NCBI GenBank assembly: GCA_965242925.1
Contig: CBDEUM010000012.1
Coordinates: forward strand, 64,001-128,000
Reading direction: 5' to 3'
DNA: 64,000 nt
Source: Roseibacillus sp.
Lineage (GTDB): Bacteria; Verrucomicrobiota; Verrucomicrobiia; Verrucomicrobiales; Akkermansiaceae
Shown here: positions 168-5,340 of the stretch, piece by piece
Numbering within the stretch: the first letter of the stretch is position 1
Layout: each line of letters opens with the position of its first letter
Translations under genes and position numbers: made by a program
The notes under the pieces: generated by a model
The model's input: only the letters and a program-made list of their open reading frames with translations
Database searches by the model: none
What the model was told of the DNA's origin: nothing

Positions 168-845
168 ATGAAAACATACATTCTGGCAGCCATGGTACTG
201 GCAGGCATCACCCAACTGAGCCTTGCAAACCTGAAAATCCCCCGTTCTGTCTATCAGGTTGAGGACATGGAGGAAGCCATGGCCACAGCCACCGAAAAGG
301 AGAAGCCTCTCATCTTTGTCTTCACTGACCCGGGCACCACATGAGGATCTTGCCTGGCCGCCAGTTCGGAGGCCTTCAAGTCGTTTAAGTCTGTCGGCGT
401 GGTTGTTTTTGCCAATTCGAGAACGGATTTCGGCAACCTTCCCGCTGGAGCCAGGGAAGTGCGCGCCAAGGGCGGCAACACCATTCCGATGGTGTTTGTC
501 ACAACCGCTGACGGACGGAAGGGCATTGACGCGATCCCCTACACCTCTCTGAAAAACGACATGCGGAAATCCGTGCGCACCCTCCGGACCACCCTGGAAA
601 ACGTCGATGTGCTGAATGGTGGCGCGGAAGCCGACCGCAAGACGACGGAAGATGATGCGACCTCTCCTGCCGCCGACCAGCCTGAGTTCACGGAATGGAA
701 GAACACTGCCGGGCGCGTCATCGAGGCCGCCGCCAGGGAAGTGAAGGGCGGCAAAGTCCTCTTCCTCCTCCCGAACGGAAAGACGGTCTGGTACGATATC
801 TCCAACCTTTCCAAGGCAAGCCGGAAGAAGCTCCCCGGGGAATAG
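168..845 (+). CDS. Exported thioredoxin-fold protein with C-terminal SHD1-like domain; probable selenoprotein (Sec at TGA 342-344, UxxC motif), 225 aa
   Basis: ORFs 90..344 and 399..845 share a frame and are separated only by TGA 342-344. The joined product is: signal peptide MKTYILAAMVLAGITQLSLA; Trx-like EEAMATATEKEKPLIFVFTDPGTT-U-GSC; cis-Pro-like TIPMVFVTTADG; SHD1-like tail FTEWKNTAGRVIEAAAREVKGGKVLFLLPNGKTVWYDISNLS. Confidence 0.85.
345..382 (+). promoter_or_regulatory. Putative bacterial SECIS element
   Basis: The upper stem GGCC-G-CC (356-362)/GG-A-GGCC (368-374) starts 11 nt after UGA and closes loop AGUUC. A lower stem CUUG (349-352)/CAAG (377-380) is also possible. The apical GU is at positions 23-24 counting the UGA U as 1, the same register as E. 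coli fdhF. Confidence 0.75.
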
Positions 846-870
846 AATTCCGGCAATTCGACAATTCCGG

Positions 871-909
871 AACGCCGCGACCTTGTTCCAGGTCACGGCG
901 TTTTCGTTT
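871..909 (+). terminator. Rho-independent terminator
   Basis: AACGCCG-C-GACCT / AGGTC-A-CGGCGTT hairpin followed by TTCGTTT, between convergent genes. Confidence 0.65.
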
Positions 910-943: not shown

Positions 944-2416
944 CTACCGCGGGATCCTGACCAGGGTGTAGTAAGCCTCGGGATGCAGGAGCTTGGCACC
1001 GTCCCGGGCGATCAGATTGCTCATCACCAATTCGTGCACATACCCGGCCCGCATTCCGTCGAGGGTCAGGCGCACCGCCCTTCCCTCTTCCAGCACCTCG
1101 GCGGACTTGATGGCGACCGGTTGGGTGTCTGCCTCCGGCCCACCATAACGCGACTCCAGCTTGTAGGTGTAACTTTTCATAGCGTAGTTTTCCACCCTCC
1201 CGGCTGCCGCCATGTCCACCGGCTTGGTGAAAGTCAGGAGGAACCCGCCCTTCTGCACCTTCATGCTGTGAACCTCGAAGGGCAGCTTGCCCGTCCAGCG
1301 CAACCGCTGGAATCCCCAACCCTTGTTTCCCCGGCCTCCCCAGCCCGCATTCGACATCCCCACGAACATCGAGGCATCTTTACCGAAGGCCACGCGAATG
1401 ATTCCGCACTGGAACCCCTCACGAAACCGGAAGCATGCGCCCTGCCAGTGGCCTTCCACTTTTTCGAGAAACACCCGCATGACCCAGGCGTGGTGCTGAT
1501 CAGCCACAAAGAGCTGCCCCGCGAACGGACCAAACCCGCCCCCGGAGGTATCCCAGCACATCCCGCTCGGGCTCTTGCCCATCTTGTTGTAGGGAAACCA
1601 GACCGCCGGCATTTTCCACTGGGGGATCGTTTCATGAAGATCCTTCATGAAGGTCCCCGATTTGGGGCTGGGAATCTGATCGAAGGGGGATCCGGCCAGT
1701 TCCTTGCTCGGCAAGCCATGGGGATGTCCGTGAAATTCGCCCTTGGCGAGGTGCGATAGTTTGGAGGCGTTGCACCATTCACCCTGGTTGTCTGTGTAGA
1801 AGATCTCCCCATCGGGACTCGCTTCAACCCCGGCAGGTGAACGCAGGCCCGTGCACATGGGCTCCATCCTGCCCGTCCGGGGATCGATCCGAACGGCCCA
1901 CCCCCGCCAGTGAGCCCGTCCATAGGGCTGACCCCCGAAGGGCTTGTTGAGGGTAATCCACATCTTGCCGTCCTTGTCCATTCGTGGACCGAAATTGTAT
2001 TCATGATAGTTGCCGCTGATTTCCCAGTCGTCACAGACCGTGATGAACTCATCGGCTTTCCCGTCACCATCTGAATCCCGCATCCGGGTCAACTCGCCCC
2101 GCTGGGCGGTATAGACCCAGCCCTCGTGCTCCAGGAAGCCAAGGGGTTGAGCCAGCCCGCGTGCATATTTCCTGTAGGAAACCTTTTCCGGGTCATCCTC
2201 GTAGGCCCCCTCCGCGAAAAACACATCACCGGTGCGGGTTCCCAGCAGGATGCTCCCGTCCCCAAGTTTGGTCAGGGCACCTATTTCAAGTTTGAGCCCC
2301 CGGTCCGGGAAGGTGTCGATCCTGTAGAATTCATCCTCGGAATTCTGGGCTGCCGCCGAGAGACCGGCGACAGTGAAAAGGACAGGAAGAATGCGACGCA
2401 TCTGATGAGCTACCAT
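944..2416 (-). CDS. Secreted beta-propeller protein (sorbosone-dehydrogenase-like / DUF7133-like), partner of upstream multiheme protein
   Basis: 490-aa ORF with signal peptide (MRRILPVLFTVAGLSAAA; start may be 2401) and motifs DSDGDGKAD, GNYHEYNFG, GLRSPAG, TDNQGEW. Overlaps the stop of the upstream gene. Confidence 0.75.
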   Translation of the reverse strand: MVAHQMRRILPVLFTVAGLSAAAQNSEDEFYRIDTFPDRGLKLEIGALTKLGDGSILLGTRTGDVFFAEGAYEDDPEKVSYRKYARGLAQPLGFLEHEGWVYTAQRGELTRMRDSDGDGKADEFITVCDDWEISGNYHEYNFGPRMDKDGKMWITLNKPFGGQPYGRAHWRGWAVRIDPRTGRMEPMCTGLRSPAGVEASPDGEIFYTDNQGEWCNASKLSHLAKGEFHGHPHGLPSKELAGSPFDQIPSPKSGTFMKDLHETIPQWKMPAVWFPYNKMGKSPSGMCWDTSGGGFGPFAGQLFVADQHHAWVMRVFLEKVEGHWQGACFRFREGFQCGIIRVAFGKDASMFVGMSNAGWGGRGNKGWGFQRLRWTGKLPFEVHSMKVQKGGFLLTFTKPVDMAAAGRVENYAMKSYTYKLESRYGGPEADTQPVAIKSAEVLEEGRAVRLTLDGMRAGYVHELVMSNLIARDGAKLLHPEAYYTLVRIPR

Positions 2417-5340
2417 TTGATCCGAATGTTGAATTCCAGTTGATCTCCCGGGGCCAGAGAGAGCGGCACCATCAGCTCAAGGCCTCCCGATCCCTCACGA
2501 ACAGAAGGTTGCATCTCCTGGTTCCCTTCAATCCAGAGCGAAACCTTCTTGTCAACAGCCCATGATCCATCGTCCCGCTTCTCAATCGCCTGCCCTGTCG
2601 CGGCTATGAACGTCAGGCCCTTTCGCGCGAAGTCCTTCCCGGCCCTGAGCTTGAAGTGGCGCTGCAGGACGGCTCCTCCTGGCTGGAGAACCGGTTTGGG
2701 CTGCTCCTGGATGAGGCAGCCTCCAAGCTGATACTGAAAGACCGGTTCGCCATTAGATGTCAGGCGGTAACCCTGGAACTCACCACCCACGTCCCGATCT
2801 GTCTTGCCCACGGAGGGCCAGGGAGCGGCGGGCGTTTCCAGGAAGGCAAAGGCGGGCCCCGCCGGGAAATTGTAGATATCCGTCCCCAGAGGGCTGAAAA
2901 ACTTGTCGCTGCGACCGCTTGCCACCCCGGAAGAATCAAAAAAACGTCCCCTCCAGGTCTTCGCCAAGCGGGTGACATTGGCATCAAATGCCACGTGAAC
3001 CCGCTCCGGGAAGCCCGCCACGATGGCCCGGGGCCCCACGTCGGTCATGAAAGTACGGTGCACGATAGGCTCGAGGAGAGGCTTGAGTTCACTTCCTGTT
3101 CCCCCTTCTTCAGCTATTCCAGGCGGGGGAGGCATGGATTTACCGAGGGAGAGGTAGTTCCAGATTCCCTCAACCTGCCTGTTGGTATCGCCCCCTGCGA
3201 TTTTCTTGAAGGAGGCCACTCCACCAGGCCAGAACGCCGGCATGCGGGTGTCCCTGTTGAAAGCCTGAGGATTGTGAAGAAAACGGACGAACCAGCCCGG
3301 GGTGAGCCGCTGCTGCATTTCCGCAAGGTCAATGCCGGGAATTCCCACCGCCTGACGTCCTCCCACATTATGACAGGTGATACAGACGAGCCCACCCGTG
3401 CCAACCAGGGCCTGTCCGTCGCGGGCTGATCCATAGTTGAATTCAACAGCCCTGGCGTCATCAGGCCGGGCGTCGGCTTCAAGAAAGGCCGCCACCAGCG
3501 GCTCCAGGTTCTCCTTGCCGAAACCCGGCATGCGGGTGGACATGAATCGTCCCCGCACATGCATCTCACCGTGATAGAGGATTCGTTCCAGTGCTTCCTT
3601 GCGGAACTTGGATCCGGCCGTATCCAGGTTGGGGGGGATTTTCCCCTCCTCCCCCAGATCAATCTCCATCTTGGTTCCGAAGAACCCGCGACGCGAGTCA
3701 TCAGGTCCTCCCTGCCCCCCCCTCTGGTGGCAGGCATAACAGTTGAAGGAGGCCAGATGCTTCTGCACAATCTGCCCGGCCGTTAAAGGCTCCCGCCGCT
3801 CTTCCCTGAGTGCCAGAGCCTCCTTCAGCGCCGACCGCTGGACTTGCGAAAGATTGTAGTCTGGCGCGTTCGCCGGCACGTTCTCCGAAAGACAGCCCCG
3901 GTCAGGGACGAGATCCGCGAAAGGGTTTGCGCCTGGAGACGACTCCCGCCCGGGCAGAGAATGGCATGAAGCACAACCGCGGTTGACGAAAATCTTCGCC
4001 CCTCCTGCCACCTTTTGCTGATCGATCACCATGGTCTCGTGCCCAACCGGAGACATCGGATTCCCCCGCGGCAGGAAGAGGTTCCAGGAGGGAATACGTT
4101 GCTTGGGGACATCCGGCCCCTGCCATCCCACCCCAAAAATCGCACTATCCGTTTTTTGGAAGTAGCGCACGTCCAACTCGTGTTCACCCGCCTTCAGTTC
4201 CACCGAACCCGACACCTCCTTCCGGGTATGCACCCCATCACTGTCCACCACCGGCTCCCCATTAAGGAGCACCTGTGAGCCGTCATCCGAAACCGTGAAG
4301 AATGTCCACTTCCCGTCTTTCGGAACCTTGAGGATCGCACGCCAACGCATTGCGAAATCCTGGCGCCGCTTCTGGAAGCCCATGTTGAAGGTGATGGTTC
4401 CATGCGTTCCACTCTTCGTGGCCGTGAGTGTCTCGAAGTCAGGCAATCTGTCTCCCAGAGGCGCCTCGAAATACTCCCACCGCACACCCGGCTCCGCCTT
4501 GGTCTTTAACCCGGATTGATTCTTCAACTGGTCCCGAAGGAGATACACTGCCAGGGCATGCGCTTCATTCTCCGACAGCCACAACCTGGGCATGCGCCCG
4601 GACCTGCGAATCTTGAGAGGATCGAGAAGAAAGGCCGTCAAATGATCCACCGTGGTCTTCGCGGCCAGTTCCCCGAGAGGGATTGCCGAAGCCCCGGGAC
4701 CCTCTATCGGCATCTCCGGTTCGTGACAGGAAACACAGCCCACCGAGTGATACAAATCGCGGCCGCGCTCCACCAGACGCGCACTGCCACCACGCCCGGA
4801 GGATTGGATCCCACCCCCCTGCGATACCAGAAAATGCACCAGCGACTCGACTTCTGCCTGCCGGTCCCCGGCCGCTGTGCCATGAAAGAGGTCCGGCATG
4901 GTCGTGCCCGGCTTCACTTCGTGATTCTCCGAAAGAAACCTGCGCAGATAACCGGGAGTTACCCTGGCCCCGACGGCGGAGAGATCCGGCGCCCTCTTGG
5001 TCGCAACCACCGGAGTGTCCCCCTGCTGCTCGTGGCAGGAGAGACAGTTGAGTTCACCCAGGAGAAGTTCCCCTGCGGCGGCCTTTCCTTCCGGATCACC
5101 GTGCAGCAGATCAAAGGCGGGAACCACCGGTTCCCCGGAAATCAATCCGTGGCTGAGAACAGGAAAAACCGCAAACAGCAACAAGCGAGAAGGACCGCCT
5201 AAACTCACCCCCCGACTATGAGAAGCCGAACCATGGAGCGGCAAGCCGAATTGCACGATCCATCCCGGAAGACAGGGTGGTGAAGGTGGAACTACGCACT
5301 CCTCCCCGATCTCGCTCACCGTTAAGTGAGCGTCCGCCAC
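2410..5340 (-). CDS. Multiheme c-type cytochrome with PA14 domain
   Basis: Five CxxCH motifs (CLSCH, CVSCH, CASCH, CYACH, CITCH) and a PA14-like segment (WTFFTVSDDGSQVLLNG...DGVH...GEHELDVRYFQ). The true start may lie downstream of 5340. Confidence 0.8.
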   Translation of the reverse strand: MADAHLTVSEIGEECVVPPSPPCLPGWIVQFGLPLHGSASHSRGVSLGGPSRLLLFAVFPVLSHGLISGEPVVPAFDLLHGDPEGKAAAGELLLGELNCLSCHEQQGDTPVVATKRAPDLSAVGARVTPGYLRRFLSENHEVKPGTTMPDLFHGTAAGDRQAEVESLVHFLVSQGGGIQSSGRGGSARLVERGRDLYHSVGCVSCHEPEMPIEGPGASAIPLGELAAKTTVDHLTAFLLDPLKIRRSGRMPRLWLSENEAHALAVYLLRDQLKNQSGLKTKAEPGVRWEYFEAPLGDRLPDFETLTATKSGTHGTITFNMGFQKRRQDFAMRWRAILKVPKDGKWTFFTVSDDGSQVLLNGEPVVDSDGVHTRKEVSGSVELKAGEHELDVRYFQKTDSAIFGVGWQGPDVPKQRIPSWNLFLPRGNPMSPVGHETMVIDQQKVAGGAKIFVNRGCASCHSLPGRESSPGANPFADLVPDRGCLSENVPANAPDYNLSQVQRSALKEALALREERREPLTAGQIVQKHLASFNCYACHQRGGQGGPDDSRRGFFGTKMEIDLGEEGKIPPNLDTAGSKFRKEALERILYHGEMHVRGRFMSTRMPGFGKENLEPLVAAFLEADARPDDARAVEFNYGSARDGQALVGTGGLVCITCHNVGGRQAVGIPGIDLAEMQQRLTPGWFVRFLHNPQAFNRDTRMPAFWPGGVASFKKIAGGDTNRQVEGIWNYLSLGKSMPPPPGIAEEGGTGSELKPLLEPIVHRTFMTDVGPRAIVAGFPERVHVAFDANVTRLAKTWRGRFFDSSGVASGRSDKFFSPLGTDIYNFPAGPAFAFLETPAAPWPSVGKTDRDVGGEFQGYRLTSNGEPVFQYQLGGCLIQEQPKPVLQPGGAVLQRHFKLRAGKDFARKGLTFIAATGQAIEKRDDGSWAVDKKVSLWIEGNQEMQPSVREGSGGLELMVPLSLAPGDQLEFNIRIKW

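Follow-up and report, generated by a model that had tools for sequence, protein, structure and literature searches.

A predicted thioredoxin-fold selenoprotein with an SHD1-like C-terminal domain in Roseibacillus and related Verrucomicrobiales

Thioredoxin-fold selenoproteins of the UxxC type, in which selenocysteine (Sec, U) opens the redox motif and a selenocysteine insertion sequence (SECIS) lies within the reading frame, are the commonest class of bacterial selenoproteins. In the fdhF gene of Escherichia coli, a mini-SECIS bound by SelB follows the UGA at a spacing of 11 nt and presents G23 and U24 in its loop. The SHD1 domain of Sla1 is known from a different setting, as a cytosolic module of a eukaryotic endocytic adaptor that binds NPFxD signals. 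We describe here a gene whose product appears to join a UxxC thioredoxin fold to an SHD1-like domain. The gene lies at positions 168–845 on the forward strand of a 64,000-nt stretch of a Roseibacillus sp. genome (GenBank assembly GCA_965242925.1, contig CBDEUM010000012.1, positions 64,001–128,000; the whole stretch is referred to below as the window). Sequence comparisons make it very probable that the gene is a genuine selenoprotein gene whose TGA at 342–344 is read through. The protein is of a known kind, a thioredoxin-fold UxxC selenoprotein, in a domain architecture that is new and unannotated; the identification is solid and, in kind, not surprising.

Table 1 of a 2026 review (PMC13188914) lists 119 prokaryotic selenoprotein families or subfamilies, and its thioredoxin-fold UxxC entries are Trx (PF00085), thiol:disulfide interchange protein (PF13098) and the DsbA-like and DsbG-like proteins. 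No entry in that table names an SHD1 fusion or Thioredoxin_7, and SHD1, PF03983, PF13899, DsbH and words beginning with Verrucomicrob occur 0 times each in the text of the review. The original prediction, made from the window sequence, had not known this architecture as a described selenoprotein family, and the architecture is indeed absent from the table. Searches of the open-access literature and bioRxiv returned no paper on a Sec-thioredoxin-SHD1 architecture. The gene would extend the prokaryotic selenoproteome, as inventoried in these 119 families, by a family or architecture not yet catalogued.

The window gene shares the general plan of the known UxxC selenoproteins. In both, Sec stands in for the first of the two Cys residues of CxxC, where helix 1 of a thioredoxin fold begins, there are homologs with Cys, and a hairpin within the coding region follows the UGA; some of the known families are exported, as is predicted for the window protein. 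It departs from them in having no Trp before the motif (T-T-U-G-S/P-C in this family) and in carrying a C-terminal SHD1-like domain. The models PF00085 and PF13098 and the NCBIfam selenoprotein models match none of 20 aligned family members at E ≤ 0.1, and no curated family model matches the window protein, nothing in Pfam or NCBIfam exceeding its cut-off. The ‘UGSC-containing protein’ of the review's Table 1 (NF041046) shares only the letters U-G-S-C with the window copy. We rejected it as an identity, as it matches neither the window protein nor the 20 members (E ≤ 0.1), nor anything in the genome (E ≤ 1); moreover, the Ser of its name is not conserved in the window family, with congeners and a strain variant reading UGPC.

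Two further groups of proteins are close to the window protein. Exported proteins of the DsbH or Thioredoxin_7 type (2ju5, which is DsbH, 3fk8, 3f9u and 3ira) are among the best structural matches to residues 20–154; unlike them, the window protein is predicted to use Sec, and it falls below the Thioredoxin_7 cut-off. Cys forms of the same family share with the window protein the signal peptide, thioredoxin-like domain, linker and SHD1-like domain, and match the family profile with E-values down to 8.5e-58.

The in-frame TGA and its Cys-containing relatives

The gene comprises 225 codons and a TAG stop, with the ATG at 168, the stop at 843–845 and a single in-frame TGA at 342–344. Under translation table 11 it appears as two open reading frames (ORFs) in the same frame, one ending at 344 and the other spanning 399–845. 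These are the two pieces, split by one TGA, that the original prediction had described, and its expectation that standard annotation would divide the gene is met by the databases, which contain the downstream piece as an ORF starting with GTG (399–845). Translated with TGA as U, the sequence yields 225 residues, beginning with MKTYILAAMVLAGITQLSLA and passing through KPLIFVFTDPGTT-U-GSC, which places the redox pair at U59 and C62. The coding sequence aligns over its full length with homologs in 20 other genomes and is complete; we read the gene as intact and monocistronic, encoding one 225-residue selenoprotein. The motif U-G-S-C, as first proposed, holds for the window copy; for the family it has to be widened, to U-G-(S/P)-C in the genus, where most members have UGPC, and to U-(G/P/A)-(T/I)-C-S-G-T-V-S in a second subfamily.

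A six-frame search of 61 related genomes with the joined protein, in which stops were read through (E ≤ 0.001), gave matches in 38, many of them through the C-terminal domain alone. At 21 of the 24 loci analysed, each from a different genome, a TGA occupies the column of U59, and these TGA forms range from 94 to 21% identity to the window protein. Eleven of the 21 genomes, including the window's own, belong to its genus, and a twelfth genome of the genus holds a broken copy. The other three loci comprise one with Cys (CPKT, encoded with TGC; L039), one with Ser and one with a TGA in a different, redoxin-like domain. A locus flagged with one TGA in the six-frame search (L052) had no blastp match and lies outside the analysed set. 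Alignment A1 contains 20 sequences and leaves out L026 (a run of N after the gene), L034 (which holds an X), L037 (the broken copy), L046 (a different thioredoxin-type domain) and L042 (matched only in its C-terminal part). The TGA stands at one column in 18 of the 20 rows of A1, and the residues invariant in all 20 include M1, K2, P25, P107 and W177. Among the 11 genus sequences, differences upstream and downstream of the TGA alike concentrate at the third position of codons, with 232, 288 and 792 at positions 1, 2 and 3 in codons 22–58 and 718, 498 and 2297 in codons 60–145.

A comparison of the A1 profile with 1.84 billion cluster representatives gave 3,241 matches at E ≤ 0.001, some of which involve only the SHD1-like domain; 610 of them reach E ≤ 1e-10 and 83 reach E ≤ 1e-30. 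The best 150 of the 3,241 matches comprise 7 already known from a word-index search and 143 newly aligned ones, in which residues at the Sec column were counted. Of these 143, 94 extend across the column, 70 with Cys (CGLC in 22, CPLC in 13 and CPKC in 7), 5 with Trp in a W-x-x-C motif and 19 with some other residue or with a gap. The check proposed at the outset, whether homologs carry Cys or TGA at this position, is thus answered with both: TGA in 18 of 20 aligned loci and Cys in these 70 representatives. Forty-nine of the 143 newly aligned matches have nothing before the column and start just after it, as gene calls truncated at a TGA would be expected to do; of the 7 already known, 4 start at profile position 63 and 3 further on. 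The simplest account of the Trp rows is that the gene caller used a code in which TGA specifies Trp; two of them sit in a clade that is otherwise almost entirely Sec. The few matches with names, from Akkermansiaceae, Verrucomicrobiales and Verrucomicrobiota metagenome-assembled genomes, are labelled ‘hypothetical protein’, the Cys forms included, in a family that gene callers routinely cut in two.

The TGA could instead be a nonsense mutation or a true stop, leaving a pseudogene or two small genes of which only the 399–845 ORF, or neither, is made. The word-index search with the joined protein would fit this account, in that none of the 75 database proteins it returned spans the TGA, because each covers at most 72% of the query, and one congener (G014, locus L037) does hold a frameshifted copy that breaks after about residue 70. 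However, a nonsense mutation would not recur at one column in 21 genomes at 21–94% identity, and the part upstream of the TGA has the substitution pattern of coding sequence, with a conserved signal peptide and strand 1. A protein made from the downstream piece by itself would have neither signal peptide nor strand 1, nor the first active-site residue of the fold. Cys forms are called as full-length proteins. We consider a pseudogene or a pair of small genes extremely unlikely and retain the reading as one selenoprotein gene.

Independent assemblies bear on the codon itself. The stretch is contained wholly or partly in at least 20 listed public runs from 16 studies, nearly all labelled as marine or seawater metagenomes and six of them metatranscriptomes, and four runs were compared over positions 100–900. 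A 5,534-nt DNA contig covers the whole of this interval with 11 differences, a 976-nt contig from an RNA library covers 180–900 across the TGA with 9, and a 207-nt contig from another RNA library covers 185–391; none differs at 342–344. The substitution T348C, present in two RNA-library contigs, changes Ser61 (TCT) to Pro (CCT) and converts UGSC to UGPC, the motif of most congeners. A sequencing or assembly error that turned TGC or TGT into TGA, which the original prediction had wished to see checked in reads, is vanishingly improbable: contigs from one DNA and two RNA-library runs of other studies keep the codon while differing elsewhere at 6–11 places, and the column reads TGA in twenty other genomes. 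The UGA at 342–344 (forward strand) is assigned as Sec59 on the single column in 21 loci from 21 genomes, the Cys of relatives and the unchanged codon of the independent contigs.

The SECIS-type hairpin and the selenocysteine machinery

A SECIS-type hairpin is formed by positions 356–374 of the forward strand (GGCC-G-CC / AGUUC / GG-A-GGCC), with 4 bp, a 1×1 mismatch, 2 bp and the loop AGUUC. The spacer between TGA and hairpin is 11 nt (345–355), and, counting from U342, the loop residues G364 and U365 fall at nt 23 and 24, as had been proposed from the first inspection of the sequence. The 11-nt spacer, the GC-rich upper stem-loop and the G/U at nt 23/24 are shared with E. coli fdhF. The hairpin differs from that of fdhF in its loop, which is 3–5 nt in the window family, and in having a 1×1 mismatch in place of the bulged U; in the second subfamily, it is displaced by one codon away from the UGA, with GU at nt 26–27. 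A lower stem, formed by nt 8–11 with nt 36–39 in the minimum-energy fold of the window sequence, was dropped, as inspection of the alignment of TGA loci by eye indicated that it is not kept in congeners. Rfam at E ≤ 10 returned three sub-threshold hits (Moco riboswitch at 19.6 bits, snoU83B and Ms_AS-1), which we take as chance; Rfam holds no bacterial SECIS model against which the hairpin could be scored.

Comparative evidence for the hairpin comes from alignment A2, which contains the 60 nt from the TGA onward at the 21 TGA loci and in which an 8-bp helix was scored. The positions T1, G2, A3, G23 and T24 are invariant (21/21). Pairing is found in 79.4% of the helix cells, against 25.6–53.5% when the 3' strand is slid by 1–3 columns. 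Changes on both sides occur in 5 of the 8 pairs, a number reached in 8 of 500 shuffles, and neither the 11 double-change cells nor the covariation score of 0.247 is reached in any of the 500. All 21 TGA forms retain the hairpin, even though the peptide encoded by this segment varies (LAASSEAF, LAACEVAL, NAASLAAF, SGTVSLAV). When the same stretch was folded in 6 Cys forms as a negative control, the hairpin appeared in none of them, and the mean minimum free energy was −7.3 kcal/mol, compared with −11.0 kcal/mol in the 21 TGA forms. The GU of the loop is supplied by a Ser AGU codon in 20 of the 21 TGA forms and by a UGU codon in the remaining one, whereas the Cys forms that retain Ser at this place, and lack the hairpin, use AGC (4/4). 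A single codon thus carries an RNA-level signature, AGU in Sec forms and AGC in Cys forms.

Profile searches of the genome identify selB, at 287.5 bits against a cut-off of 242.25, and selD, at 366.6 bits. The selB ORF has 653 residues and contains the GTPase, β-barrel, SelB-wing_2 and SelB-wing_3 domains. The selD gene itself has one in-frame TGA, in ...SSCAG-U-ASK, and after this UGA a 7-bp GC-rich stem with a GUC loop, of the same general type as the hairpin at 356–374, lies further from the codon than that hairpin does from its own. A tRNA-Sec with the anticodon tca is also present. Neither TIGR00474 nor PF03841 detected selA in the assembly that contains the window (42 contigs, 89.87% complete), a result that counts against a selenoprotein at this locus. 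selA is over the cut-off in 14 of 15 other genomes of the genus searched, the exception being 70% complete, and it occurs in all five of the more distant genomes that hold homologs of the protein. The gap is probably one of an incomplete assembly; failure to find a gene at 89.87% completeness is no proof of its absence. The original prediction had named a sequencing error at the TGA, a genome without the sel genes and homologs that never have TGA as grounds for giving it up; all of these came out in its favour except for the sel genes, where selB, selD and tRNA-Sec were found as expected and the selA result is neutral.

The missing selA would also be accommodated if the UGA were decoded, by read-through or by reassignment, as a standard amino acid (Trp, Cys or Gly) instead of selenocysteine, and the Trp of W-x-x-C in 5 of 94 covering representatives is what a gene caller translating TGA as Trp would print. 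Against this, 6 intact homologs of the gene end with TGA as their stop, which shows that there has been no genome-wide reassignment of the codon. The position is moreover that of the nucleophilic Cys of CxxC, where exchange between Cys and Sec is the rule. The covarying hairpin, with its invariant GU, stands at the place of a bacterial SECIS and is not seen in the 6 Cys forms, and the genome has selB, a Sec-containing selD and tRNA-Sec. Insertion of an amino acid other than Sec is highly unlikely in our view, and we take selenocysteine to be the residue encoded at 342–344.

Predicted structure and function of the protein

The N-terminal 20 residues (MKTYILAAMVLAGITQLSLA; positions 168–227, forward strand) resemble a signal peptide, with a likely signal peptidase I site after S-L-A20. 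K or R followed by a 12-residue hydrophobic stretch (mean Kyte-Doolittle value above 1.7) is found in all 20 aligned homologs, and the window translation contains no lipobox Cys and no twin-arginine motif at its N-terminus. The earlier description of the protein as secreted is narrowed to an export that is predicted from this signal-peptide-like N-terminus.

A thioredoxin-fold domain follows at residues 23–147 (positions 234–608, forward strand). An AlphaFold2 model built from A1 has a mean predicted local distance difference test score (pLDDT) of 81, a predicted template modelling score of 0.58 and pLDDT values of 85–95 in the domain blocks. Its elements are a helix at 31–43, a strand at 48–53, helix 60–75, strand 78–83, helix 93–102, strands 108–112 and 119–123, and helix 132–144. 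The model thus contains the β-α-β-α-β-β-α succession of the thioredoxin fold, with the redox motif predicted at the N-terminus of helix 1. The loop DPGTT precedes U59, which with G-S-C62 opens helix 60–75, and P107, invariant in all 20 sequences, lies directly before strand 108–112 at the predicted cis-Pro position. Foldseek against the PDB ranks thioredoxins, YphP, DsbH and disulfide isomerases at the top (E 4.9e-4 and weaker), and VIA-align over 48,161 chains gives Z 10.2 for both 3ira and 3d21 with residues 21–154.

The two domains are connected by a low-complexity linker (residues 148–171; positions 609–680, forward strand) that varies in length and sequence among homologs and is probably disordered, with pLDDT below 50 for residues 152–170. 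Residues 172–225 (positions 681–842, forward strand) form a small SHD1-like β-barrel, modelled as five strands with a short helix between residues 175 and 220. VIA-align superimposes this region on Sla1 SHD1 (2hbp) with Z 7.8 and a root-mean-square deviation of 1.6 Å over 54 of 66 residues; a Z below 8 may by itself reflect a common arrangement, and for 2hbp both the deviation and the domain coverage are good. The yeast and window domains have the same fold and weak sequence similarity, and the window domain, unlike that of Sla1, is part of a bacterial protein with predicted export. Sequence-profile searches of the PDB gave weak matches only (2kuc at E 0.069, 2hbp at E 0.14). Pfam SHD1 matches 4 of the 20 family members, the best at E 1.5e-4, and residues 151–222 match a locus elsewhere in the genome (C4:78425–78637; E 3e-7) that reaches the SHD1 cut-off (23.7 bits). 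The thioredoxin fold and SHD1-like C-terminus of the original prediction are both borne out by the model and the fold searches.

By analogy with E. coli fdhF, a ribosome would reach the UGA at 342–344 and SelB, carrying Sec-tRNA(Sec), would bind the hairpin at 356–374 with its winged-helix end through the loop residues G364 and U365, so that selenocysteine would be inserted in place of termination. The signal peptide (residues 1–20), of the Sec export type, would direct the protein across the inner membrane and be processed after A20. In the mature protein, the selenol/thiol pair of U59-G-S-C62 would form the active site where helix 1 begins, facing the invariant Pro107, and U59 and C62 would cycle between selenol/thiol and selenenylsulfide (Se–S bond). 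Beyond a flexible linker, the SHD1-like barrel may bind a peptide motif and so dock the redox centre to a partner or substrate.

Such a protein would most likely function as an extracytoplasmic thiol-disulfide oxidoreductase, and its CGPC-like motif suggests a reductase or isomerase rather than an oxidant of the DsbA type. Our confidence in any specific biochemical role, which draws on analogy, is much lower than in the selenoprotein status. More speculatively, and with considerable doubt, the SHD1-like barrel could serve Verrucomicrobia and their relatives as a docking module outside the cytoplasm that has so far gone unrecognised, tethering several kinds of redox head to a common envelope partner or substrate motif. 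Heads seen with the SHD1-like domain are the Sec- or Cys-containing thioredoxin-like domain, a redoxin-type domain with WGTR-U-GPC and a Planctomycete-type cytochrome c. If this were so, the window gene would be the selenium-dependent arm of an exported redox network, expressed in surface seawater and invisible to standard annotation. The family bears more generally on selenium use in marine Verrucomicrobia, and it raises the question of what a eukaryote-type SHD1 fold does outside the bacterial cytoplasm.

Several results besides the selA gap weigh against this interpretation. The hairpin does not stand out when the window sequence is folded by itself (342–420, 79 nt; z = −0.14, with 80 of 200 shuffles folding at least as well), and 2 of its 8 helix positions are mismatched in the window copy. 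It nevertheless appears to behave as a SECIS, the comparative evidence being significant where the single-sequence fold is not. Thioredoxin_7 (PF13899) matches the window protein at E 0.25, with 11.9 bits against a cut-off of 27 and over residues 33–64 only; in a scan of the genome with this model the selenoprotein locus is absent from the list at E ≤ 1, and Pfam SHD1 (PF03983) is likewise not listed for the window protein at E ≤ 1. The gene is likely transcribed, although RNA-library contigs can hold DNA. The presence of selenium in the protein is a prediction from comparison, and the direction of the redox reaction, export and the role of the SHD1-like domain are argued from analogy.

Family distribution, paralogs and neighbouring genes

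The family profile was applied to an even draw of 301 genomes of the phylum (E ≤ 1e-10), and 26 match, several with thioredoxin-only forms of about 150–160 residues. No further Sec form outside the window's genome was found in this draw. Two genomes flagged with one TGA (G344 and G085) were rejected as Sec candidates, the TGAs being terminal stops of redox-dead forms. In the samples searched, Sec forms come from the window's own order. The non-Sec forms of the family have Cys at the column (CGLC, CPLC, CPKC), CxxT, CxxS or CxxA, or no redox residue, and the 6 Cys forms folded are without the hairpin. On a quick tree of 114 rows and 137 columns, which is poorly resolved, the Sec label changes 8 times, and at least 3 of these changes are forced by well-supported branches; one Sec form and one Cys form, for instance, are sisters at 96% support. 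With Sec, Cys and redox-dead forms and at least three Sec/Cys switches, the family amounts to a natural experiment.

Pfam SHD1 has nine matches in the window's own genome at E ≤ 0.01. Two paralogous architectures, on contigs C4 and C33, end in a stretch found with the window's C-terminal domain. The one at L021 1474–2025 consists of a Planctomycete-type cytochrome c domain (PSCyt1) followed by an SHD1-like stretch (E 4.2e-6). The other, at L022 733–1689, has a Thioredoxin_2/Thioredoxin_7 domain with S-P-L-C in place of CxxC, followed by an SHD1-like stretch found with residues 170–219 of the window protein, a weak match (E 0.014); the ORF directly after it resembles a thioredoxin reductase, as judged by eye. 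The genome also has a thioredoxin-only paralog without Cys. On contig C4, at about L020 1300–1560, a tandem repeat of 15-nt type encodes PGSDE and PMSLG runs in two frames before an SHD1-like stretch.

Other Sec candidates were noted alongside the family. In a genome of the same genus (G017), the reverse strand of L046 1462–2175 encodes a redoxin-like protein with ...EYWGTR-U-GPC... that ends in the same SHD1-like domain, which suggests that this module occurs with Sec redox heads of different kinds. A second candidate selenoprotein of the window's own genome (L058 2170–3123, corresponding to G000 C9:2170–3123, forward strand) looks exported and has its TGA in ...EMDGHPLGCT-U-NNG...; this ORF was found by the Thioredoxin_7 genome scan at E 0.0027, flagged with one TGA, and belongs to no Pfam family at E ≤ 0.001. 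The broken copy of the selenoprotein gene in the congener G014 (L037) retains the TGA and most of the hairpin, and further TGAs follow the frame change after about residue 70.

The selenoprotein gene stands alone, with a divergent upstream and a convergent downstream neighbour, and ARAGORN finds no tRNA in the window. The upstream gene encodes a PDZ/DUF6288 protein and starts about 6 nt before window position 1. It is split here into two overlapping frames (L019 1–1327, reverse strand), with the signal peptide and PDZ domain at 677–1327 and DUF6288 at 1–873, which could reflect a frameshift, an assembly error or a pseudogene. In all 10 congener loci that were tested for it, the PDZ/DUF6288 gene is a direct neighbour of the selenoprotein gene, on varying sides and in varying orientations, so that we propose neither an operon nor a functional connection. 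The downstream gene (944–2416, reverse strand) encodes a 490-residue DUF7133/SGL-like β-propeller protein and is common only to the window genome and its closest relative. It is overlapped at its start by a gene at 2410–5340 (reverse strand) for a 976-residue protein with several cytochrome c domains and PA14, and the two genes look like an exported haem-dependent dehydrogenase set with no link to the selenoprotein.

A promoter-like site (TGGACA, 16 nt, TACATT) lies at 133–160 on the forward strand, the one site found by a consensus scan in which 0.1 were expected. It ends 8 nt upstream of the ATG, and a short-leader or leaderless start from it is possible. RNA-library contigs from three runs begin at 180, 185 and 187, and the DNA contig continues further; these starts hint only weakly at a 5' end close to the promoter-like site, as contigs do not show transcript ends. 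In the 98-nt gap before the convergent gene, positions 868–906 (forward strand) hold a terminator-like GC-rich hairpin followed by the U-rich UUUCGUUU. A simple terminator scan listed no terminator, this hairpin included. Its folding energy is −22.1 kcal/mol (z = −4.0), and 1 of 200 shuffles folds as well.

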